Virus record (IMG/VR): IMGVR_UViG_3300045988_050262
Length of the DNA stretch: 13,374 bases
Strand: one strand, 5' to 3'
Origin: a virus
In this document: positions 1 through 13,374 of the stretch, piece by piece
How the letters are laid out: every line of letters starts with the position of its first letter
Position numbering within the stretch: position 1 is the first letter of the stretch
The notes under the pieces: model-generated
The model's input: only the letters and a program-made list of their open reading frames with translations
What the model was told of the DNA's origin: nothing
Database searches by the model: none
Position numbers and translations under genes: made by a program

Positions 1-79
1 TCCCCAATTGACGATAAACCGTTCATAGCACTTTAACACAGTAAAGCGTTACTGTACTACACTTTGTTAAATTATTCAC
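1..79. repeat. Left inverted terminal repeat (55 bp perfect, imperfect to ~79)
   Basis: nt 1-55 (tccccaattgacgataaaccgttcatagcactttaacacagtaaagcgttactgt) equal the reverse complement of 13320-13374. Homology continues to ~79 with one mismatch (pos 56) and a 2-nt indel. It contains a 7-bp hairpin, acagtaa-agcg-ttactgt, at 38-55. Confidence 0.95.
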
Positions 80-122
80 GGACACCATACGGGTTGAGGG
101 CGGAGCCCTCAGGCGGTGCGCG

Positions 123-146
123 CACTTTAACACACTAAAGTGTTAC
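123..146. repeat. Second, internal direct copy of an ITR sub-element (copy 1 at 29-52)
   Basis: cactttaacacaGtaaagCgttac (29-52) versus cactttaacacaCtaaagTgttac (123-146), 22/24 identical. Copy 2 forms a 7-bp hairpin, cacttta-acacac-taaagtg (123-142). Confidence 0.85.
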
Positions 147-172
147 GTAGTGCCACCACCTCTATCATGTGT

Positions 173-201
173 AGTATACCATAACCGGGTGGTGATGTCA
201 A
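173..201 (-). promoter_or_regulatory. Consensus sigma-70/sigma-A type promoter on the minus strand, firing toward the left terminus
   Basis: The minus strand reads TTGACA (201->196), a 17-nt spacer, then TGgTATACT (extended -10; hexamer 178->173). The hexamers and spacing are the same as the promoters at 5388 and 13238. A 7-bp inverted repeat (154-160 / 188-194) brackets the -10. Confidence 0.65.
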
Positions 202-1305: not shown

Positions 1306-3309
1306 ATGAAATACTACACTACGGCGGATTTTCCGCTATTCGCAATTAAAAACTGTGATATCGAGCGCCGTAGTGTAGGCAATCAGGGCACCACCGTTCG
1401 GCGCGTATACAAGCAGATGTTGACTGGCTTTGACATTGAAACGACCCGTATCCCCGCCGAAGATCAATCCTTTATGTACGTTTGGCAATGGTATTTCGAG
1501 GGCGTGGGCGTTGTCATCGGTCACACCTGGCGCGAACTTCGTCTATTCATAATGCAGATCGAAGCCGTACTTGACAATGCCATGCTGGTGGTGCTGGTCC
1601 ATAATCTTTCATACGAATTTCAGTTTCTGCGCGCGGTTCACGAATGGAAAACCGATGAAGTATTTGCCGTCAAGTCCCGGCGCGTGCTTAAAGCTACTAT
1701 GAACGGTAAACTTGAGTTTCGTTGTACCATGCTCCACTCTAATATGTCTCTTGCTACCTGGACGGCCAAAATGGGCGTGGAGCACGGCAAGCTTTCCGGC
1801 GACGATTTCAATTACAATATTATGCGCTACCCAGACACACCGCTGTCCGAAACTGAGCTTGCGTATATCACCAATGACGTGGTGGGCATGGTCGAAGCTT
1901 ATCGCGCCGAAATGGAGCGAGACAGTGATAACCTCTATAAAATCCCGCTCACGTCCACCGGTTACGTTCGGGCCGACAGTAAGCGCGCCATGCGCAACAG
2001 CGGTAAGGTGGTTAAGAACATATTGCCGGACTATGATATTTACAAGATACTCCGCAAGGCGTTCCGTGGCGGCAATACCCACGCCAACAGATATTATTCC
2101 GGGATGATACTTGAAAATGTGAAGTCCGCCGATCGTTCCAGTAGTTACCCGGATGTTATCTGCAATTGTAAATTTCCCATGACCAAATTCCGGGAAATCA
2201 TTAATCCTGATATATGGAAAGTCGAAAAGATGATGAAAGACCGCCGTGCGCTGGTATTCACTATCCTGCTCCACGACGTGGAGCTTTCCGACCCATACAA
2301 CGGTTTCCCCTATATCAGCGTTGCAAAGTGCGCGGCCTGTGTTCGTTCTGGTAATGATAACGGTCGAGTGTTGAATGCTGACTTTATAGAAATGACAGTG
2401 ACCGATATTGACTGGCGGATTATCAAAAAGCAGTATGAATTTTCTGACGTGCAGGTGACGAAAGCTTATTGGAGCCATTACGGCTATTTACCTCGCGCTC
2501 TGATCGTGAACACAATAGACTACTACACCAAGAAAACCAACCTTAAAGGTGTGGACGGCCAACAACTACTCTATGACAAGTCCAAAAACCTATTGAATGG
2601 TATTTACGGCATGATGGCGCAAGATCCGGTGAAGCAGGATATTATTTACCATGAAGGCACTGGCGAATTCACCGAGGATGACGCGCCGCCTGAAAGTCTG
2701 CTTGCGGAGTTCTCCAAACACGCATTTCTTGCCTATCAGTGGGGCGTATGGATAACAGCATGGGCGCGTCTTCGTTTACAAGAGGGCATAGACCTATGCG
2801 GGCATAATTGTGTGTATGTGGACACTGACAGTTGTAAATATCTGGGTGTGGTGGACTGGACGGCTTATAACCGCAAGCGCGTCCGTGCCAGCGCTCAGAG
2901 CGGCGCATACGCCACAGACCCACACGGAAAGCGCCACTATATGGGCGTATTCGAGGACGAGGAGCCATACACCAAGTTCAAGACGCTGGGCGCAAAGAAG
3001 TATGTCTTTGAACACGCGGACGGCAAGCTCCAAGTTACCATTGCGGGCGTCAACAAAAAGAAAGGTGGTGCGGAGTTATCTCGCCGCGGCGGCATTGAAG
3101 CATTCCGCGAGGGTTTTACATTCATAGACGCAGGAGGTACCGAGAGTGTCTACAATGACTCTACGCCATACGCAGAACGTATGTTGAACGGTCATAAAAT
3201 CGAAATGTCCCCTAATATCTGCATTCGGCCTAGCACGTATACTATTTCTTTGACGGATGAATATAGAAATTTGTTAGAAACTTGCAAAATTTCTGTTGAC
3301 AATTTGTAG
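1306..3309 (+). CDS. Protein-primed family-B DNA polymerase (phi29 gp2-like), 667 aa
   Basis: Motifs, each paired with its phi29 counterpart: ExoI GFDIETT. ExoII HNLSYEFQF (phi29 HNLKFDGAF). ExoIII AYITNDV (YIKNDI). AFRGGNT (AYRGGFT). Motif A DRSSSYP (DVNSLYP). Motif B KNLLNGIYGMM (KLMLNSLYGKF). Motif C YVDTDS (YCDTDS). KxY GAKKYVF. Confidence 0.96.
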   Translation: MKYYTTADFPLFAIKNCDIERRSVGNQGTTVRRVYKQMLTGFDIETTRIPAEDQSFMYVWQWYFEGVGVVIGHTWRELRLFIMQIEAVLDNAMLVVLVHNLSYEFQFLRAVHEWKTDEVFAVKSRRVLKATMNGKLEFRCTMLHSNMSLATWTAKMGVEHGKLSGDDFNYNIMRYPDTPLSETELAYITNDVVGMVEAYRAEMERDSDNLYKIPLTSTGYVRADSKRAMRNSGKVVKNILPDYDIYKILRKAFRGGNTHANRYYSGMILENVKSADRSSSYPDVICNCKFPMTKFREIINPDIWKVEKMMKDRRALVFTILLHDVELSDPYNGFPYISVAKCAACVRSGNDNGRVLNADFIEMTVTDIDWRIIKKQYEFSDVQVTKAYWSHYGYLPRALIVNTIDYYTKKTNLKGVDGQQLLYDKSKNLLNGIYGMMAQDPVKQDIIYHEGTGEFTEDDAPPESLLAEFSKHAFLAYQWGVWITAWARLRLQEGIDLCGHNCVYVDTDSCKYLGVVDWTAYNRKRVRASAQSGAYATDPHGKRHYMGVFEDEEPYTKFKTLGAKKYVFEHADGKLQVTIAGVNKKKGGAELSRRGGIEAFREGFTFIDAGGTESVYNDSTPYAERMLNGHKIEMSPNICIRPSTYTISLTDEYRNLLETCKISVDNL

Positions 3310-3324
3310 CAGATATGTTACTAT
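3296..3324 (+). promoter_or_regulatory. Internal promoter overlapping the polymerase stop codon
   Basis: TTGACA (3296-3301), a 17-nt spacer, then TGtTACTAT (extended -10; hexamer 3319-3324). It is followed by GATGGGC (3334-3340) and the AGGAGG of the next ORF. Confidence 0.6.
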
Positions 3325-3980: not shown

Positions 3981-4214
3981 ATGACGGTCACTTTTTTAAC
4001 TGATAACATTAAGATGGGCCGCACGGGTATTGCTTACCCGTTTGTGTTGGAAGTTCCTGAGTTCGGCCAGATTGCCGGGAGAGTGACCGAGACGCGGAGG
4101 GGAGCCACGCAGGTGGCTTTCCCCTCTGGTGTCAAAGCGGCCAGCGCAACGGCGGGGTTTATTCTCTATGAGTTTCAGAAGCAGGTGATAGTGAGTGAAA
4201 ATATTTGCACCTAA
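3981..4214 (+). CDS. Hypothetical protein (77 aa)
   Basis: AAGGAGGT lies 7 nt before ATG 3981. It overlaps the ATPase start by 20 nt. No motif recognised. Confidence 0.7.
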   Translation: MTVTFLTDNIKMGRTGIAYPFVLEVPEFGQIAGRVTETRRGATQVAFPSGVKAASATAGFILYEFQKQVIVSENICT

Positions 4215-5214
4215 CGGCTATTTGGATATGGAAAAAATCATTTCCAGCCCGTACTATTTCATTATGGTGCTGACAGGTCGCGGCACCGGTAAGACGTTCG
4301 GTGCTCTGGATTATCTCCGTAAACGCGCTACCAAGGGCGACCGGTTCATGTATTTTCGCCGCCTACAAACACAGATTGACATTGTGGCAAAGCCGGAGTT
4401 CTCCCCATTCAAAAAGCTGGACGCGGTACGCCACACTGTCACAGACGTAAAAAGCCTATCGAAGCAGACCGCCGGTTTCTATGATGATAGCACCGGCGAT
4501 CTGTTAGGCTATGCGGCGGCGGTTTCCACGTTCGCCAATTTGCGTGGTTTTGACGGTTCCGATATAGGCACTATCTTATTTGAGGAATGTATCCCGAAGC
4601 TCTACGAGTCAAAAATTCGCGACGAGGGCGCGGCTCTGATGGACGCTTACGAGACGATCAACCGCAACCGCGAGTTGGAGGGTGACGAGCCGGTGAAGCT
4701 GGTTTGCATTGGAAACAGTAACAACTCTGGCGCAGATCTTTTGTGCTATCTCAATCTTGTTTCCCGCGTAGAGAAAATGAAAAAGAACGGTACAATGGTC
4801 TACACGGACCCCGCGAGGTCCCTACTTCTAATCGTCCTGAAAGACTCCCCTATGGGCGAAAAGAAAGCAGATACAGCCCTTTACCGATTTTTGGGCCGCG
4901 AGAGCGACTATGCAAAGGCGGCACTTGACAACGAGCCGCCGGAGGAATGGGGCGAGTTCACCGGCAAGCTCCCATTAAAAGAGCTATCCCCGGTTGTGTC
5001 CGTAGGCGAGATTACAGTCTATCGGCATAAATCCCGCCACACGCTCTACGTGTCTACGCACAAGCAGGGAAGCCCGCCCACCTACGGCACCGGTCAAAAT
5101 GACATGAAGCGTGTCAAGACTCTCTATCGTTGGATATGGCAGGCGTATATAACCCAGCAAGTCATTTTCGAGGAAACGGTCTGTGAAATTCTATTCACTA
5201 AGTATTTTAGTTAG
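4195..5214 (+). CDS. DNA encapsidation (packaging) ATPase, phi29 gp16-like, 339 aa
   Basis: AGGTGA lies 6 nt before GTG 4195. Matches to phi29: Walker A LTGRGTGKTF (GARGIGKSY). RFMYFRRL (QFIYVRRY). Walker B ILFEECI (IVFDEFI). NRNRE...LVCIGNSN (NRERVRCICLSNA). Confidence 0.9.
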   Translation: MKIFAPNGYLDMEKIISSPYYFIMVLTGRGTGKTFGALDYLRKRATKGDRFMYFRRLQTQIDIVAKPEFSPFKKLDAVRHTVTDVKSLSKQTAGFYDDSTGDLLGYAAAVSTFANLRGFDGSDIGTILFEECIPKLYESKIRDEGAALMDAYETINRNRELEGDEPVKLVCIGNSNNSGADLLCYLNLVSRVEKMKKNGTMVYTDPARSLLLIVLKDSPMGEKKADTALYRFLGRESDYAKAALDNEPPEEWGEFTGKLPLKELSPVVSVGEITVYRHKSRHTLYVSTHKQGSPPTYGTGQNDMKRVKTLYRWIWQAYITQQVIFEETVCEILFTKYFS

Positions 5215-5224
5215 GAGGTTGACA

Positions 5225-5401
5225 ATGGCAAAGAGTGATAAATGGGAACGTTTGAAAGAGGAAATGAACCGTTTGGCAGATGAATTCGATACACTTCCAA
5301 ATCCCACCGCGGAGCAGTGCGGAATGTGTCAGGCATACAATTATGTTTATGTGCGGATGCGCGCACTTGAGTTATCTGAAAAAAAGCTTGACAAAGCCTA
5401 A
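5225..5401 (+). CDS. Hypothetical protein (58 aa)
   Basis: AGGAGG (5211-5216) precedes ATG 5225 (MAKSDKWERLKEEMNRLADEF...), ending in TAA 5399-5401. The upstream start at 5183 in the ORF track has no SD and overlaps the ATPase. Confidence 0.65.
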   Translation: MAKSDKWERLKEEMNRLADEFDTLPNPTAEQCGMCQAYNYVYVRMRALELSEKKLDKA

Positions 5402-5416
5402 ACCATGCGCTATACT
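5388..5416 (+). promoter_or_regulatory. Consensus promoter for the lysis and structural (late) operon
   Basis: TTGACA (5388-5393), a 17-nt spacer, TATACT (5411-5416), with an A7 run just upstream. Predicted start is ~5423. Confidence 0.7.
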
Positions 5417-5529: not shown

Positions 5530-5856
5530 ATGAAAGTATACTTGATTTGTGTTTTGGCCTGTATTCTGGCCGATATCCTGACCGGGTTGGTCAAATCCCT
5601 TTATGAAAAAGATTTCCAGTCTTCTGTCATGCGACAGGGCCTTTTCCACAAGGCGGGCGAATTGATGGTGCTGGGTCTGTTGTACGGCGTGGAATATGCG
5701 GCTCCTATGCTGGGTATCACGTTCGAGTTGCCCACGTTCCGCGCCGGAGCCTGCTATTGTATTTTGATGGAAGTGGGGAGTATCATTGAGAATATTAAGC
5801 CGTTCACCCCCGCCATTTCCTCTATCTTGAGAAAGGATGAAGACAATGCCGATTGA
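5530..5856 (+). CDS. Holin (phage_holin_4 / toxin-secretion-holin type), 108 aa
   Basis: GGAGGG (5516-5521) lies 8 nt before ATG 5530. Product MKVYLICVLACILADILTGLVKSLYEK...GELMVLGLLYGVEY...CYCILMEVGSIIENI has three hydrophobic segments typical of this holin family. It sits directly upstream of the endolysin. Confidence 0.85.
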   Translation: MKVYLICVLACILADILTGLVKSLYEKDFQSSVMRQGLFHKAGELMVLGLLYGVEYAAPMLGITFELPTFRAGACYCILMEVGSIIENIKPFTPAISSILRKDEDNAD

Positions 5857-6574
5857 TGTTTATTTGTCCCCGGCATATCACCGGCAGAATAACTGCTGTT
5901 ATCACCGGCCAGACGGGCAGCCCTGCTATGAGACGTTGCATAACAACGAATATCTGGACGTGCTGGAAAAGTTCCTGACGGCCAACGCGATCACCTATGC
6001 GCGCGGCCCGCGCCGTGTCCCTATGTCCAATGAGGACGGCACGGCGCTGATGAACAAGGCTATTGCCGAAAGTAATAAGCTGAAAGCGCGGGTGCATTTC
6101 GTAAGCCACACCAACGCAAGCGCCAACGGCACCGCAAGCGGATACCACCCCATGTATTACGCATACAGCGCGAGCGGGAAATTGCTGTGCGAGCTGTTTG
6201 CTAAGTATCGTCGAGACATTTACCCCGGCGCGGTGAAGTGCGTACCCCGCCCCAGCGGCTATGGCGGCAATCTGGCGGAGCTACGAAACACCACCGGCGT
6301 ATGTATCTATCAGGAGCATATATTCCACGACAACGCGCAGGATGCGGCGTGGTTCCATACGCACATGGAGGATATTGCACGGGCCGATACAAAGGCGCTG
6401 TGCAAGTGGTTCGGGAAAACCTACGTGGAGCCCGACCGCGCCGAACAGGAAACCGGCGCGCCGCGCTTTGGTCTTGACTATTCCAAATCCGATGGCTTTA
6501 GCTGGTACGTGGACGGCGTTGAGACTACACCGCGCGGCTTTATGGACGCACTGACAAGTTTAATGGAGGACTGA
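5837..6574 (+). CDS. Endolysin: N-acetylmuramoyl-L-alanine amidase (Amidase_3-like)
   Basis: Zn-amidase pattern: SPAYH...E...VSHTNA...LAELRNT...IYQEHIFHDN. It overlaps the holin stop. The SD (AAAGGA 5832-5837) fits the second ATG at 5846 better than 5837. Confidence 0.88.
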   Translation: MKTMPIDVYLSPAYHRQNNCCYHRPDGQPCYETLHNNEYLDVLEKFLTANAITYARGPRRVPMSNEDGTALMNKAIAESNKLKARVHFVSHTNASANGTASGYHPMYYAYSASGKLLCELFAKYRRDIYPGAVKCVPRPSGYGGNLAELRNTTGVCIYQEHIFHDNAQDAAWFHTHMEDIARADTKALCKWFGKTYVEPDRAEQETGAPRFGLDYSKSDGFSWYVDGVETTPRGFMDALTSLMED

Positions 6575-6887: not shown

Positions 6888-8105
6888 ATGAATAGCATGA
6901 CCTTTTCCCAGGCGGCAACCGTTCTGACCGATATCGTCAAGCAGGCGACCGGCCAGGAAGCGATCACCGCGATCACCACGCCGCAGGATTTTGTAGCGGT
7001 AGCGCAGACTGCGTTGAAAACGGGCTATGACCCCGTTATCAACGCAATTTCACAGATTTGGAGCCGCACGATCTTTTCCGTGCGCGACTACCGGACGCCC
7101 ATGGACTCCCTTATGATGGATATGCCCCGCTACGGTAACGCCCTGCGGAAGCTGTCCCCCGTCAGTGGTGAGATGGTGGACGATGATCGTTATAAGTACC
7201 CCGTGGCCTATGACGCCACCAAGACCGGAAACCCTCTGGGCAACGGCGAGAGCGTAGACATGTATGCCATTAAGAAGCAGGAGACCCTGCAAACCAATTT
7301 CTATGGCACCGCTGTCTATGAGCAGCATTACACCATGTTCCGCGATCAGTTTGACGCCGCCTTTGAAAGCGCGGACGAGTTCAGCCGTTACAATGCTATG
7401 TGCATGACGGAGCGTATGAACGACCGCGAGAGCTACAAGGAAAGTATCGGACGCGGCATTCAGGCCAACTTCATTGGCGGCCTGCTGTCCGAGGGTAACG
7501 CGAGTCGAGTTATCCACCTGCTGACCGACTACAACGCCGCCACCGGCCTGTCCCTGACTGCGCAGAGTGTGTACCAGCCCGCCAATTTTGCGCCCTTTAT
7601 GCGCTGGGTGTACGCGCGTATCAAGACGATCTCCCGGATGTTCGCAGAGCGTTCCCAGATGTTCCAGACCGTTATCAATACCAAGCCGGTCTTGCGGCAC
7701 ACCAACCCGGAAAATCTGCGTATCGCGCTCTATGCGCCCGCTATGGACCAGATGAACGCCATGGTGCTGTCCGACACCTATAACGACAACTATCTCCAGT
7801 ACGCGACCTATGACGCGGTTAATTTCTGGCAGAATATCGAGACGCCTGACACCATCGAAATCGCCCCCGTGTATACCGACACCACCGGTGCGCTGAAGCA
7901 GGTGGAAGCGGCGAAGCCGGTGGAGAAAGCGGGTATTTTCGGCGTCATCCATGATCGTGACGCTCTGGGTTATGCCATCGTCAACGACTGGGCGCAGCCC
8001 ACTCCGTTCAACGCCCGCGGCGGCTATTGGAATGAGTTTTATCATTCCACGTTCAAGACCATTTCCGACAATACCGAGAAAGCCTGTGTCCTGTTGCTGG
8101 ACTAA
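6888..8105 (+). CDS. Major capsid protein, phi29 gp8-like (HK97 fold), 405 aa
   Basis: The C-terminal segment HDRDALGYAIVNDWAQPTPFNARGGYWNEFYHSTFKTISDNTEKACVLLL parallels phi29 gp8 [47 protein letters not shown]. Strong SD, and a terminator downstream. Confidence 0.9.
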   Translation: MNSMTFSQAATVLTDIVKQATGQEAITAITTPQDFVAVAQTALKTGYDPVINAISQIWSRTIFSVRDYRTPMDSLMMDMPRYGNALRKLSPVSGEMVDDDRYKYPVAYDATKTGNPLGNGESVDMYAIKKQETLQTNFYGTAVYEQHYTMFRDQFDAAFESADEFSRYNAMCMTERMNDRESYKESIGRGIQANFIGGLLSEGNASRVIHLLTDYNAATGLSLTAQSVYQPANFAPFMRWVYARIKTISRMFAERSQMFQTVINTKPVLRHTNPENLRIALYAPAMDQMNAMVLSDTYNDNYLQYATYDAVNFWQNIETPDTIEIAPVYTDTTGALKQVEAAKPVEKAGIFGVIHDRDALGYAIVNDWAQPTPFNARGGYWNEFYHSTFKTISDNTEKACVLLLD

Positions 8106-8114
8106 TGGCATTGA

Positions 8115-8141
8115 GGGAGACCGGGCAACCGGTCTCCCTTT
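8115..8141 (+). terminator. Intrinsic terminator or attenuator after the capsid gene
   Basis: gggagaccgg-gcaa-ccggtctccc forms a 10-bp GC-rich stem with a tetraloop, followed by TTT. It lies between the capsid stop (8105) and the next SD (8142). Confidence 0.6.
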
Positions 8142-8153
8142 GGAGGAAAGTAT

Positions 8154-9542
8154 ATGAGCTTTAAAGTCAGACTCTATACAATCGAAAAATATGACCGGAG
8201 CACGAAACAGCCAACGGGGGCGGGGAAAGAGTATGAATGCCTGGCTAACACTCCGTTCTCCGTCCTCTCTCCCACACTGCGGCTGGCTACCGGGGACGCG
8301 GTGAGCGTATATAATTATGTATATGTGCCCTCCGTGGACCGGTTTTATTTCGTCAATGAGTGGACCTATTCCCGCGGCTTGTGGGAGGCGGAATGCGCTG
8401 TTGATGTGCTGGCCAGTTGGAAAAGCTATATCGGGGACAGTACGCTGTACGTGTTGCGCTCTGCGGCACAGTCGGACGGCTCTGTTATCGATATGGCATA
8501 CCCCACCACGGCGAAATTGGACGTGGTGCAGAAAGCGTTTACGCTGGCGGGGAGTGATCAGGAGTCGTGGAATTATGACGGTGTTAAAGGCACTTATGTT
8601 GTCGGTATCGCGGGCCGAACGGGCGGAGCCGTTACATACTGGGCCATGAACACAGCTATGTGGGCGAATTTCACAAATGAAATTTTTGGCACCGGCGAAT
8701 ACGCGGGCATAGTGGACGAAGCCGAAAAGCGGAATTTTAACCCGTTGCAGTATTTTGTATCCGCTAAATGGTTCCCGTTCGATATTCAGACCGCGGGAGG
8801 TACAGCCCCCATCACATTGGGCTGGTGGACGATGAGCAGTAAAGCGTTTCAGTTTGAAGCGTCCAGCTCCAAACCTATGTTTTCCGGCACGATCACTATT
8901 CCGAAACACCCGCAGGCCGCGGCACGCGGAAAGTACATGAATTCTGGCGCGTTTTCCGCCTACGCGCTCAAGCTTCCCTGTTTCGGACTGGTGCAGATAC
9001 CGCCCGCCCTGATTATAGACACTACAAGTCTGGAAGTAGAGATTTGGACGAATATCGCCGACGGGACTGGAATGCTGAAAGTAACGGCGAATAATCGCGC
9101 CGAGCCTATTATTTTCTTGGAAGCGCCTGTGGGGTGCCCCGTACAGCTTTCTCAGGTGTCAGCAGGTTTGTTGTCCTCTATCGCTAATCGCGCGCAAGCG
9201 GGCGGCGGTTTGTGGGGGGCGGTCGTCCAAGCGGCACGTTCCGCCATTACGGAAATTGGTGAGGTGGTCGGCCTGCCTGTAGAAAATTCTACGGCAGTAG
9301 CGACCAACGGCACCAACGCAAGCCGCGCTATGACGAAAATCACGCCCGCATTGCTGGCGACATTTACCTATGCCACTGACGAGGACGTACAGCACCGGGG
9401 CAGGCCGCTGTGTAAGCTGGTAAAGGTCTCCACGTTGTCCGGTTACATTCAGGCGGCGGATGGTGACATTCTGGCTCCCGCTACGGAGAGCGAGTTACGG
9501 AGCATTAAAGCGTATTTGGAGGGAGGTTTTTTCTATGAGTAG
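8154..9542 (+). CDS. Tail knob / tail tube protein, phi29 gp9-like, 462 aa
   Basis: DRFYFVNEWTYSRGLWEAECAVDVLASW parallels phi29 gp9 [31 protein letters not shown]. The C-terminal ...VSTLSGYIQAADGDI...ELRSIKAYLEGGFFYE parallels ...YVQTKDCFISGDI...LQEIRTIFDNGITLW. Confidence 0.8.
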   Translation: MSFKVRLYTIEKYDRSTKQPTGAGKEYECLANTPFSVLSPTLRLATGDAVSVYNYVYVPSVDRFYFVNEWTYSRGLWEAECAVDVLASWKSYIGDSTLYVLRSAAQSDGSVIDMAYPTTAKLDVVQKAFTLAGSDQESWNYDGVKGTYVVGIAGRTGGAVTYWAMNTAMWANFTNEIFGTGEYAGIVDEAEKRNFNPLQYFVSAKWFPFDIQTAGGTAPITLGWWTMSSKAFQFEASSSKPMFSGTITIPKHPQAAARGKYMNSGAFSAYALKLPCFGLVQIPPALIIDTTSLEVEIWTNIADGTGMLKVTANNRAEPIIFLEAPVGCPVQLSQVSAGLLSSIANRAQAGGGLWGAVVQAARSAITEIGEVVGLPVENSTAVATNGTNASRAMTKITPALLATFTYATDEDVQHRGRPLCKLVKVSTLSGYIQAADGDILAPATESELRSIKAYLEGGFFYE

Positions 9543-10476
9543 TTACGGCGGCGCGCCGGTATTCTACGATCACCAGAACGTCGCACTAACGGAGGTCTCC
9601 CCCTCTACGGTCCATAGCCAGAACACCAAGCTTGTGCGCTACTACAAGCGCTATCTGCTACAGAAAGCCATGTCGGTGTTTAAGTGGAAGCTTCCGGAAC
9701 ATTGGAACAGGGACTATCTGTTGTATTCCCTGTACTGCTGGGGCGTGGTGGCCGTGTTTAATACAGATCGTTTCGGCGTCATTCCGCAGATGTGCGGACT
9801 GGCCGGTTATGGCGTATTCTATCAGCCCACGCGGGCGATCATTGCAAATTCGCTTATCAATCGAAGCATTGAGGCGAGAATTGGCGAGACGTGCGAATTG
9901 CTCAAGCTCCAGTCGGATTTCGGCGGCATTATGGATATGGTGGCACAGTATGCGGAGCTGATGGCACTCACGTCTGAAATGGTATCCATGAATGTGGTCA
10001 ACTCAAAGCTGTCCTATGTGTTCACGTCCGGGAATAAGGCGGCGGCGGAAAGCTTCAAGAAGCTGTACGACAAGATCACCAGCGGCGAGCCCGCTGTTGT
10101 GGTTGATAAGGCGCTTATGCTCCCGGATGGCTCCAAGGCGTGGGAAGCGTTTGAACAGAATTTGCGGCAGAATTTCATAGCCGGAGACGGCCTGTCACTT
10201 CTGCGGCAGATCGAAAACCAGTTTGCCACGGATATCGGTATCCCGAACGCCAACACCGAGAAGCGCGAAAGGGCTGTCGTGGACGAGATCAACGCGAATA
10301 ACGTTGAGACCTATTCAAAATGTGCGCTGTGGTTGGAGTCCTTGCAGGACGGCTGTGAGCGCGTGAAGCGGATGTTTGGCGAGTCGCTGGGCGGCGAGCT
10401 GTCCGTTGACTGGCGTTTCCAGCCAGTGGTTGAGAAGCCGGAGAACGGCGGGGAGGTAGACGAAGATGAAAAGTAG
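9535..10476 (+). CDS. Portal / upper collar connector, phi29 gp10-like, 313 aa
   Basis: GGAGGT lies 7 nt before ATG 9535, overlapping the upstream stop (ATGAGTAG). GIPNANTEKRERAVVDEINANNVETYSK parallels phi29 gp10 [28 protein letters not shown]. The C-terminal tail is acidic. The ORF-track start at 9460 lies inside the tail knob gene. Confidence 0.9.
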   Translation: MSSYGGAPVFYDHQNVALTEVSPSTVHSQNTKLVRYYKRYLLQKAMSVFKWKLPEHWNRDYLLYSLYCWGVVAVFNTDRFGVIPQMCGLAGYGVFYQPTRAIIANSLINRSIEARIGETCELLKLQSDFGGIMDMVAQYAELMALTSEMVSMNVVNSKLSYVFTSGNKAAAESFKKLYDKITSGEPAVVVDKALMLPDGSKAWEAFEQNLRQNFIAGDGLSLLRQIENQFATDIGIPNANTEKRERAVVDEINANNVETYSKCALWLESLQDGCERVKRMFGESLGGELSVDWRFQPVVEKPENGGEVDEDEK

Positions 10477-11580: not shown

Positions 11581-12285
11581 ATGCCCACTACTACCACACA
11601 TTTCAGTCTCAAAAAGCCCACTGGCGATGATCTCTATAACCACCTGACAATCGACAATCCGAACATGGACGCCATCGACAAGGCCATGTATGACAACCAG
11701 CAGGCGGCTATCTGCACGGCTACTCATAGCAAGGTCGGTACGGTCCAGACGCTGACGCGGCAGGGCGGTAAAAGTGCCATGTTCCGATTTGTGGCTACCG
11801 CGGCCTTTGCCGCTGGCGACACGTTCACGGTGGATGGGCAGGCAGTGACGGCCACGCTGCCGGACGGTTCCGGTCTGAGCGCTGGCGCGTTCGTCATCAA
11901 TTCCAATGTGCTGGCCTGTCTGGTCGGTACGCAGATGACGGTGTACACGGTGGCCGGTGCGGGTTCTCTGGACGCGGCTACGCTGGACGGACACCCCGCT
12001 GAATACTTTGCGGTGGCGAGCGAGACGGCGAAGAAGAGCACCAGCCAGAATGTGACTCTGAATACAGGGCTTTGGAGCACTTCCGGTAAGCTGTATACCC
12101 AGAGCGTGAGCGTGGCCGGTGTGACTGCCGCAAGCAATTTGGTTATTGGCCCCGCGGCGGAGAGCTGGGATGCGGCGGTAGCCGCGCAGGTCCGGTGCAC
12201 CGCGCAGGGCAACGCAAGTCTGACGTTTACGGCAAGTAAGTTGCCGGAGACGCCCGTTGTAATGACGGTGATTATTGTCGGATAA
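11581..12285 (+). CDS. Tail fibre / receptor-binding protein (234 aa)
   Basis: AAGGAGG lies 9 nt before ATG 11581. The N-terminal LKKPTGDDLYNHLTIDNPNMDAIDKA box is typical of Gram-positive phage fibre N-termini. The rest is A/T/G/V-rich and beta-like. Confidence 0.55.
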   Translation: MPTTTTHFSLKKPTGDDLYNHLTIDNPNMDAIDKAMYDNQQAAICTATHSKVGTVQTLTRQGGKSAMFRFVATAAFAAGDTFTVDGQAVTATLPDGSGLSAGAFVINSNVLACLVGTQMTVYTVAGAGSLDAATLDGHPAEYFAVASETAKKSTSQNVTLNTGLWSTSGKLYTQSVSVAGVTAASNLVIGPAAESWDAAVAAQVRCTAQGNASLTFTASKLPETPVVMTVIIVG

Positions 12286-12337: not shown

Positions 12338-13234
12338 ATGGCAATTGTAAATACTCATTATGGGTTCTGTGCCAAGGGTGGCGTAGCGGACAAGTTCACG
12401 TATACTGGCGAGTATAATATCCGGGCCGATGGCGTGGTGGAACTGCTGACGAGTGGAACCATTGTGTTCCTCGAGCCGATAGTCATTGACGTGTTTTGCG
12501 TCGGCGGTGGTGGACATGGTGGAGAGGTACGTGTCAGCACTACAATGACACCGGGAAGCGGGGAAGGCTATGGCGCTGGCGGCGGCGGATTGACCAGCAC
12601 CGCAAAAAATGTAAATGTCCAAGGAAGCATAGACGTAACCATTGGTGCTGGTTCTCAGGAGGTTTCCAGTTTCACGAAGGAAGTTCGCGGAGAAACAACG
12701 TCATTTGGCAATATTCTAAGCGCATTAGGGGGGCTATCCGGGTATGTAAATCGTGAAGCAACGGAAGGAGTAACCACTAAACGGAGCACAGAAGGCCGCG
12801 CTGGCGGAAGTGGCGGCGGTGGTGGCGTTACAAATAATTCCGATTGGGGGGCCGGTGGAAGTAACGGCAGCAATGGCGAAAATGGATACTATGGTAGCTA
12901 CACACCCACAGGTGGAGCAGGACAAGGAACTACAACGCGAGAATTTGGAGAAGCCGGTGGCAAACTGTACGGCGGCGGCGGCGGCGCAGGGCGATATCTT
13001 TATGGAACCACACCGGTAGTTAGTAGCGGCGGTAGCGGTGGTGGCGGTTCTGGAGCATGGAGTAGTAGGAGATACGATCCTTACCAAGCGGCGGCTGATG
13101 GCGGTGCAAATACCGGTGGTGGCGGTGGCGGTGGTGTTTACTATGCAAAAACTTCAACCGAAACTGTGCCATTTAGTTGGTTAGCAGGGGGGTCTGGAGG
13201 TTCCGGTATCTGCTGTTTCCGCATGGCAAAATAA
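12338..13234 (+). CDS. Glycine-rich-domain protein (298 aa), probable distal fibre or spike
   Basis: AGGAGG lies 6 nt before ATG 12338. It has about 9 G-rich blocks (VGGGGHGG, GAGGGG, GGSGGGGG, GGGGGAG, GGSGGGGSG, TGGGGGGG, GGSGGSG) separated by short beta-like spacers. It is the last gene of the structural module. Confidence 0.6.
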   Translation: MAIVNTHYGFCAKGGVADKFTYTGEYNIRADGVVELLTSGTIVFLEPIVIDVFCVGGGGHGGEVRVSTTMTPGSGEGYGAGGGGLTSTAKNVNVQGSIDVTIGAGSQEVSSFTKEVRGETTSFGNILSALGGLSGYVNREATEGVTTKRSTEGRAGGSGGGGGVTNNSDWGAGGSNGSNGENGYYGSYTPTGGAGQGTTTREFGEAGGKLYGGGGGAGRYLYGTTPVVSSGGSGGGGSGAWSSRRYDPYQAAADGGANTGGGGGGGVYYAKTSTETVPFSWLAGGSGGSGICCFRMAK

Positions 13235-13237
13235 GAG

Positions 13238-13266
13238 TTGACAAACGCGATCAGGTGTGCTATACT
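13238..13266 (+). promoter_or_regulatory. Consensus promoter firing outward toward the right terminus
   Basis: TTGACA (13238-13243), a 17-nt spacer, TATACT (13261-13266), beginning 4 nt after the last stop codon. No gene lies downstream, only ~102 nt of ITR-containing sequence. Confidence 0.65.
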
Positions 13267-13294
13267 ATCCATGCTGGGTGGCGTAGCACACCTG
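13252..13294. repeat. 11-bp inverted repeat bracketing the -10 and start of the right terminal promoter (operator, or terminator for the last gene)
   Basis: caggtgtgcta (13252-13262) and tagcacacctg (13284-13294), separated by a 21-nt loop that contains most of the -10 (TATACT 13261-13266) and the predicted start. Confidence 0.55.
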
Positions 13295-13374
13295 TGAATA
13301 ATTTAACAATGAGTGTAGCACAGTAACGCTTTACTGTGTTAAAGTGCTATGAACGGTTTATCGTCAATTGGGGA
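13271..13374 (+). ncRNA. Candidate ~100-nt terminal run-off transcript through the right ITR
   Basis: Predicted start is 13271-13273. It contains the ITR hairpin (reverse complement of 38-55) and no credible ORF or terminator. Confidence 0.25.
13294..13374. repeat. Right inverted terminal repeat
   Basis: Reverse complement of nt 1-79. The last 55 nt (13320-13374) are a perfect match. The right copy carries 2 extra nt (tg, 13310-13311). Confidence 0.95.

Follow-up and report, generated by a model that had tools for sequence, protein, structure and literature searches.

What might a promoter be doing when it stands directly behind the last gene of a linear viral genome, faces the end of the DNA and has its -10 hexamer buried in an inverted repeat? 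The question is raised by the right end of IMGVR_UViG_3300045988_050262, a 13,374-nt linear genome (this whole stretch is called the window below) with inverted terminal repeats (ITRs; 1-63 versus 13312-13374, 98% identity, with imperfect similarity reaching to about position 80) and all of its plausible genes on the + strand. Because it encodes PolB, a gp16-type ATPase, a phi29-type capsid protein and a gp10 connector, the window is, judged by its gene content, a small (13.4 kb) phi29-like podovirus. An original prediction had described outward-facing promoters at both ends, each with its -10 bracketed by an inverted repeat, and had suggested that the right-end repeat was either a DNA operator for a dimeric regulator or a terminator for transcription reading in from the fibre gene.

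We propose, with slightly better than even confidence, that the right end specifies a late-operon 3' RNA hairpin which overlaps an outward-promoted small-RNA gene in the ITR. According to this proposal, RNA reading through from the late (fibre) gene would fold 13252-13294 into a 3'-end element just before the terminal repeat, and this element would act as a terminator or as a processing or stability stem-loop. The same DNA would carry a sigma-70-type promoter, with its -10 in the 5' arm of the hairpin and its start in the loop, from which transcription would run outward through the ITR. The resulting RNA would comprise, in order, the single-stranded 3' arm, an invariant AAUAAUUUAACAAUG, a hairpin (HP2) and a terminator-like hairpin (HP3) with a U-rich tail, and would end 10-17 nt from the tip. 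Because the left end has a paralogous promoter and the same ITR body, the genome would encode this RNA twice.

Promoters facing both genome ends

Exact copies of TTGACA-N17-TATACT occur three times in the window, versus none in each of 200 dinucleotide shuffles. The two terminal copies were found where the original prediction had placed them: the right-hand promoter, P_out(R), is close to consensus, begins 4 nt past the last stop codon and faces the right terminus, and its mirror image, P_out(L), is on the minus strand at 201-173. The hexamers of P_out(R) match the sigma-70 consensus at 11 of 12 positions, are 17 nt apart and include a TG that extends the -10; sigma-70 geometry would put the start of transcription at about G13273, 7 nt past the -10.

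To compare the ends of related genomes, close relatives (L001-L007) were taken from IMG/VR and further loci (L141-L162) from public assemblies, which were reached via homologues of the tail-region protein encoded at 11581-12285. Together these gave 11 distinct right ends and seven left ends for the promoter comparison, and hexamers and spacing were kept in all of them. At the right, TTGACA, the 17-nt spacing and a -10 box were present in 11/11 (TATACT, with TATACC in L147 and TACAAT in L149), whereas the 8 nt past the -35 varied freely among genomes; in L149 the spacer and the -10 are unrelated in sequence, yet the promoter layout is kept. The hexamers were likewise kept in 7/7 left ends (TTGACG in L006), with quite different spacers. 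Since hexamers and spacing are retained while spacers diverge, both outward promoters appear to be under selection, a conclusion that is well supported by the conservation. Moreover, the left and right spacers differ within one genome; the two copies are therefore not merely homogenised along with the ITR, and each is maintained separately.

The last gene varies among genomes, and in several its TGA stop is the TGA inside the -35 TTGACA; the conserved block therefore begins at the promoter, which suggests that a recombination boundary lies there. Stops of this kind were seen in L002 (13300-13320), L004 (13630-13650), at the end of L141 and in L152, and the right-most gene of close relatives encodes either a glycine-rich fibre or a protein ending in ...WLASNATKQS, next to a constant promoter block. 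No convincing outward consensus promoter was apparent in distant collinear relatives (L025-L031, L163, L164, MT835998 and MT836263). The right end of L027 has a weaker outward site, TTGATA-N16-TACAAT, directly past its last gene.

Folding of the right end and the terminal repeat

The inverted repeats were also present as described, with 11-bp arms at the right (13252-13262/13284-13294) and 7-bp arms at the left (154-160/188-194). Around the perfect right-hand core arms, CAGGTGTGCTA and TAGCACACCTG, the pairing extends to a 20-pair hairpin (Table 1). The window has three perfect inverted 11-mers whose loop is no longer than 40 nt, versus 0.065 in shuffles. The right hairpin folds with -28.6 to -31 kcal/mol (z about -5.1 to -5.4; 0/200 shuffles fold as well) and ranks ninth in stability among 8,878 60-nt segments from both strands. 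The + strand folds better than the - strand (-28.6 versus -21.0 kcal/mol).

In an alignment of eight distinct right ends (alignment A1), 94.2% of the cells of the 20-pair structure are paired, versus 20-49% after a shift of the partners by 1-3 columns. At three pairs both sides have changed and pairing is preserved (AU to GC in two sequences, UA to CG, and CG to UA); it is through such compensatory double changes that the repeat is kept among relatives. The recurring non-Watson-Crick positions are all U.G on the + strand, with the U set by the -10 hexamer and A or G as its partner, and would be A.C mismatches on the minus strand. Among relatives the arms range from 6 to 20 bp and the loop from 3 to 13 nt, and L149 brackets its own -10 with an unrelated 6-bp repeat, CTGTCC/GGACAG.

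The hairpin begins 4-20 nt past the last stop codon (18 nt in the window), and in being stable, containing G+C and closing an operon this stem-loop has a feature expected of a terminator. In the collinear relative L164, a canonical intrinsic terminator (GC stem plus TTTTTT) lies directly past the last gene, at the inner edge of the ITR. The strength of folding is specific to the right end, with z values of -5.4 to -8.9 versus 0 to -2.5 for left ends (0 to -2.3 for the left ends of relatives), and this fits a role in read-through RNA, as nothing reads into the left end. The original prediction had also stated that RNA made from the promoter itself cannot form the hairpin, and this was confirmed: the 5' arm is part of the untranscribed spacer and precedes the start site, so the hairpin is confined to RNA begun further left, that is, to late-gene read-through. 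We therefore consider the repeat best read, from its sequence and comparative data, as a + strand RNA hairpin in such transcripts and not as an operator in double-stranded DNA. Thus, of the two roles first suggested for the repeat, the comparative data favor the terminator or 3' hairpin, and co-variation and variable spacing speak against the operator. Termination itself at 13252-13294 is doubtful because there is no proper U-tract, and processing or stabilisation fits equally well. The architecture said to be shared by both ends stood in part: promoter and ITR are common to the two, but the strong repeat is found only at the right.

Beyond the hairpin, eight ITR sequences were aligned on the outward strand (alignment A2), and a covariance model, R1, was built from them. 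The A2 consensus folds into HP2 and HP3, and because G.U predominates at six pair positions and A.C at none, the outward strand is the one that would fold. HP3 is complete in L004 (13762-13791), where it has 13 pairs, a loop of 4 and the tail TTTCATTAGG; as a stem-loop with a U-rich tail on the transcribed strand it was flagged as terminator-like. With the promoter of L004 at 13642-13670, the end of HP3 at 13791 and a contig of 13,808 nt, the predicted RNA would be about 115-125 nt long and stop 10-17 nt short of the tip. Complete versions of the right-end RNA are unusually stable (z -3.9 and -5.8). Matches to R1 were limited to the window's clade and to the outward strand, with E values of 1e-17 to 1e-27 for full copies; both copies in the window scored at E ~1e-15 and are cut off at their 3' side at model position 79 of 107.

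This truncation is consistent with the form of the window's ends. Both termini end within the loop of HP3, and about 31 nt beyond the TCCCC/GGGGA ends, ACTGATTGACGATATTTCATTAGGTTGTCCC, is present in seven relatives (L004, L005, L147, L148, L149, L152 and L159). It is probable, on this comparison, that the window is missing some 31 nt at each tip and does not reach the true termini. Other contigs too end within hairpin loops, and L145 ends in the loop of the -10 hairpin. Tandem duplications were also seen at contig ends, with ATCAGGTGTGCTATACT occurring twice in the last 60 nt of L154 and a 48-nt block repeated in the first 70 nt of L002; these may be assembly artefacts at hairpins or genuine slippage products.

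The complement of the invariant unpaired AAUAAUUUAACAAUG was found only in the ITRs and nowhere else in the genome, so that a phage mRNA target for it is unlikely. An outer helix (AAUAAUUUA with UUAGGUUGU) that would close a three-way junction appeared in folds of single sequences and consists of A-U and G.U pairs only; it was rejected, as the A2 consensus fold drops it and the tail variants of L152 and L149 mismatch by eye. No Rfam family was detected in the window, and five related loci gave only weak, chance-level matches with bit scores far below the gathering thresholds. A metagenome scan with ACAGTAAMGCTTTACTGT returned only unrelated palindromes, and a scan of viral contigs for the HP3 tip motif returned L004 and L005 again and nothing further.

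Table 1. Positions of the terminal elements and of the annotated genes (window coordinates, except where a relative is named)
Feature	Position	Strand	Remarks
-35 hexamer TTGACA of P_out(R)	13238-13243	+	4 nt past TAA; invariant in 11/11 right ends
Extended -10, TGc-TATACT, of P_out(R)	13258-13266	+	TATACT 13261-13266, TG 13258-13259; in 5' arm of hairpin
Predicted transcription start of P_out(R)	13272-13274	+	From sigma-70 geometry and fold; coincides with hairpin loop
P_out(L), TTGACA-N17-TATACT, paralogue of P_out(R)	173-201	-	Hexamers kept, spacers divergent in L001-L006
Hairpin, 20 pairs	13252-13294	+	Arms 13252-13271/13275-13294, 3-nt loop
Weak left-end repeat around -10	154-194	-	7-bp arms 154-160/188-194; -19.1 kcal/mol, z -2.5
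Conserved 16-mer GTGAATAATTTAACAA	13294-13309	+	Inner edge of recognisable ITR; predicted unpaired in transcript; Rex-operator-like
Invariant core AATAATTTAACAA of 16-mer	13297-13309	+	
ITR hairpin HP2 (TAGCAC...GTGCTA, inner stem)	13316-13349	+	
ITR hairpin HP3, 5' arm and part of loop	13359-13374	+	3' arm and terminator-like TTTCATT tail missing from window
Left ITR copy: 16-mer (64-79), HP2, HP3 5' arm	1-79	-	Covariance model R1, 81.6 bits
Example of extra tip sequence	L004 13775-13808		
Protein-primed family B DNA polymerase (PolB)	1306-3309	+	Pfam/PHROGs
phi29 gp16-type packaging ATPase	4195-5214	+	Pfam/PHROGs
Amidase	5837-6574	+	Pfam/PHROGs
phi29-type capsid protein	6888-8105	+	Pfam/PHROGs
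gp10 connector	9460-10476	+	Pfam/PHROGs
Glycine-rich fibre protein, last gene	12338-13234	+	Pfam/PHROGs; stop TAA 13232-13234

Several further elements were noted in the window. An inward early promoter, TTGCTT-N17-TACAAT (263-291), lies upstream of the first genes and escaped the scan since its -35 matches at only 3/6 positions; in L001 the hexamers are conserved and the spacer is different. The left end is thus a divergent promoter pair (inward 263-291, outward 201-173) about 60 bp apart. The third exact TTGACA-N17-TATACT (5388-5416, + strand) is just upstream of the holin, lysis and structural genes and, unlike the terminal promoters, has a spacer that is conserved in L001-L007. A fourth site, TTGACA-N17-TACTAT (3296-3324), is at the end of the polymerase gene. 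Between the capsid stop and the ribosome-binding site of the next gene is a perfect 11-bp GC-rich hairpin, GAGGGAGACCGG-GCAA-CCGGTCTCCCT (8114-8139), followed by TTT only, which probably either terminates transcription in part or, as a stabilising stem, raises the level of capsid mRNA. Relative to the left ends of relatives, window positions 80-150 are an insertion of about 70 nt in which the GCACTTTAACACAnTAAAG module occurs a second time (122-146) and a GC hairpin is present (95-111); a similar insertion, of about 80 nt and with a GC hairpin of 13 bp, is found at the right end of L149.

With regard to its affiliation, a megablast of the whole window against phages gave no match, and an exact look-up of its capsid protein gave no record. 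The nearest GenBank relatives are human-gut contigs without annotation, at about 51% polymerase identity, and more distant relatives have been binned into metagenome-assembled genomes of Oscillospiraceae, Ca. Scatosoma and Clostridia. This binning is a weak hint that Clostridia are the likely hosts of the clade.

Evidence against the proposal and competing explanations

A number of observations weigh against the proposed pair of a late-operon hairpin and an ITR small-RNA gene. Promoter activity, both RNA ends and any termination or processing at the hairpin are predictions. The hairpin 13252-13294 has no canonical U-tract (its tail is UGAAUAAUUU, and the tails of relatives are similar) and was not called by the terminator scan. 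The A1 covariation rests on eight distinct sequences, and a shuffle control of its overall score was not significant (212/500). The window's tip-truncated right-end RNA folds no better than shuffles (z -0.75), and the extra GC hairpins between promoter and ITR in L149 and at the window's left end could end transcription early. In addition, the G.T wobble bias would equally fit a displaced + strand that folds as single-stranded DNA (ssDNA). Finally, the 16-mer GTGAATAATTTAACAA also occurs close to the termini of some 25 contigs, 17.6-19.4 kb long, which form a second phi29-like group with tips of 5'-AAAGTAG like phi29 (L034, L044, L049, L054, L064, L083/L095, L104 and about 18 more, in the terminal 100-250 nt). 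Each end in this group has 3-5 tandem modules (GTGAAwwwTTTAACAA plus a CTTTA...TAAAG hairpin) between the tip and the inward early gene, and no outward promoter was found at those ends; because the modules are present there without one, ITR modules need not function as RNA.

The last two points are also the basis for an explanation in which the -10 repeat, HP2 and HP3 would all fold as ssDNA in the displaced 3'-ending strand during protein-primed replication, serving as origin or end-recognition structures to which the promoter is secondary. The strand that folds is the one with its 3' end at the terminus, DNA tolerates G.T wobbles, and Streptomyces linear replicons use folded 3' telomere palindromes. 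We nevertheless judge this explanation unlikely. Strand displacement is symmetrical, but the strong -10 hairpin is at the right end only, and it lies outside the conserved ITR, directly past the last gene, where L164 has a canonical RNA terminator. Furthermore, consensus promoters toward these structures are conserved at both ends, and the U-rich tail of HP3 is typical of RNA terminators. In a related vein, a Frpo-like ssDNA promoter, with both the -35 and the -10 duplexed in an ssDNA stem-loop, was considered and rejected, as the stem does not include the -35 (13238-13243), for which no conserved partner was found.

Alternatively, outward transcription itself, either through RNA polymerase or through an R-loop on the terminal-protein-linked strand, might open the terminus for protein-primed initiation, with the product being irrelevant. 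The promoters at both ends are 100-170 bp from the tips, and the RNA would have the sequence of the replication template strand, so that an R-loop would presumably free the 3' end of that strand. Opening of the terminus in phi29 is the job of the end-binding protein p6, and no homologue of p6 was identified, though no search for one was made. Such a role is difficult to reconcile with a terminator-like hairpin 10-17 nt short of the tip and leaves a conserved, strand-biased RNA structure superfluous; in addition, L164, the MT835998 group and similar relatives manage without outward promoters. We regard it as quite improbable.

An operator would require a dimeric phage or host regulator that binds the arms in duplex DNA and thereby controls the outward promoter. 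The repeat does overlap the -10 and the start, a classic position for a repressor, and a weaker repeat brackets the left-end -10 as well. However, an operator predicts fixed half-sites and fixed spacing, and what varies among relatives is exactly the arms and the loops: the arms co-vary instead of holding a fixed half-site, their length (6-20 bp) and the loop (3-13 nt) leave the spacing of half-sites free, and the arm sequence of L149 is unrelated. With A/G transitions in the 3' arm, pairing persists as U-A or U.G but the symmetry of the duplex is lost, and the left promoters of L004 and L005 have the same hexamers without a comparable repeat (z 0 to -0.9). An operator is thus very unlikely in our estimation.

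Lastly, a leaderless micro-ORF beginning at the ATG 5 nt past the -10, which the original prediction had correctly noted at both window ends (13271-13273 at the right) and whose left-end peptides are alike (MIEV[IV]ALCE), is scarcely credible and was rejected, because the ATG is not conserved (absent from the right ends of L147, L148, L152, L159 and L162 and from the left end of L002), the predicted start is its G so that part of the codon would be left out of the RNA, and the ORFs would span only 8-13 codons and encode peptides that are unrelated between the left and right ends; absent from most relatives' right ends and overlapping the predicted start, the ATG is best taken as incidental.

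Comparison with known systems

The 16-mer at the inner edge of the ITR resembles operators of the redox-sensing repressor Rex, TTGTGAA-N4-TTCACAA, for which clostridial forms are TTGTTAA-N4-TTAACAA and TTGTTAANNNNTTAACAA (PMC9600882). At both window ends the sequence is cTGTGAA-TAAT-TTAACAA, a match at 12-13 of 14 positions that is a resemblance only. In the 18-19 kb group each terminus has 3-5 such boxes, with TGTGAA and TGTTAA half-sites (for example, L104 14160-14390). Unlike in Rex operators, the left half-site has decayed in several right ends of the window's clade (to GTCAA, GCCAA, GATAA or GACAA), those of L147, L148, L152 and L159 among them. The 16-mer (13294-13309 and 64-79) also contains a DnaA-box-like TTATTCACA on the opposite strand.

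The hairpin itself is like the late-operon terminators of phi29 (TD1) and L164 in being a stem-loop directly past the last late gene, but it differs from them in that it lacks a proper U-tract and has a -10 inside its stem and the start in its loop. In sharing sequence with the next promoter it is similar to the overlapping terminator-promoter units of compact genomes, and its stem of 18-20 bp is reminiscent of the T7 hairpins of RNase III type that serve processing and stability. L164 (58% capsid identity) has an ITR of about 140 nt that starts directly past the last gene with an outward-strand terminator, and this is mirrored at its left end; given that nothing reads in there, ITRs can evidently copy functions needed at one end to both.

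Strong host-type promoters 100-300 bp from the termini that are mirrored by terminal repeats are also known as inward promoters (phi29 C2, gut relatives of the MT835998 type and PRD1). Those read into early genes, whereas the pair in the window reads outward, toward tips that have no coding potential. The sister group of L110 (MT835998) and L008-L017 (about 50% polymerase and 65% capsid identity) has long terminal repeats, each with an inward promoter, a 5' untranslated region and the start of a gene, which is the opposite polarity to that of the window's clade. L026 (1-170) and L027 (last 170 nt) have tips of 5'-AAAGTAAC and ITRs full of GGTGGACA repeats, with a GGACAATTGTCC palindrome and a CTTTA-N6-TAAAG module.

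What an ITR RNA would do is the weakest part of our proposal, and the candidates are an analogue of packaging RNA, an aid to opening of the replication origin, or a regulatory RNA. In phi29, promoter A1 faces the left terminus and yields pRNA (120-174 nt), which is encoded 147-320 bp from that end; transcription from A1/A2 continues to the genome end, and pRNA is considered to be confined to phi29-like phages of Bacillus (PMC11476376). In the window, only the two termini contain a non-coding stretch long enough for a pRNA-like gene, and it is conceivable, though improbable, that in this clade the RNA of about 120 nt does the work of phi29 pRNA, as a packaging RNA of unrelated structure with two copies in the ITRs. 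A search of the window (E<=1) and of L004 plus four other loci (E<=5) gave no Rfam match to pRNA (RF00044). A pRNA-type 5'/3' A-helix was not supported, and no complementary loop pair was seen by eye in the folds. Features that contact pRNA could not be detected from sequence in the connector or the ATPase of the window: the N-terminus of the connector is not basic, and the C-terminal domain of the ATPase fails to align to gp16.

To our knowledge, outward transcription toward a terminus in protein-primed phages is known only at the left end of phi29, where it makes pRNA, and our search of the literature found no description of an ITR small-RNA gene at both ends with a promoter nested in a late-operon hairpin. 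An abundant clade of gut phages thus keeps consensus promoters toward both tips together with a conserved, strand-specific and apparently terminator-bounded ITR transcript, and at the right end the promoter would sit within the hairpin that closes the upstream operon, with one set of bases serving as a -10 in DNA and as a stem in read-through RNA. Should the RNA be made, it would represent a packaging RNA of a new class, a means of helping to open protein-primed origins through transcription, or a phage small RNA encoded at the origin; in the first of these cases, RNA-dependent DNA packaging would extend beyond Bacillus phages to phages of gut Clostridia. We rate the unit as a variant of the phi29 A1/pRNA-type terminal transcription unit: as in phi29, a genome with a gp16 ATPase and a gp10 connector has a host-type promoter near its end that faces the terminus, but where phi29 combines a 6-bp ITR with a single pRNA gene, the predicted RNA body of the window lies within the ITR and is present at both ends.

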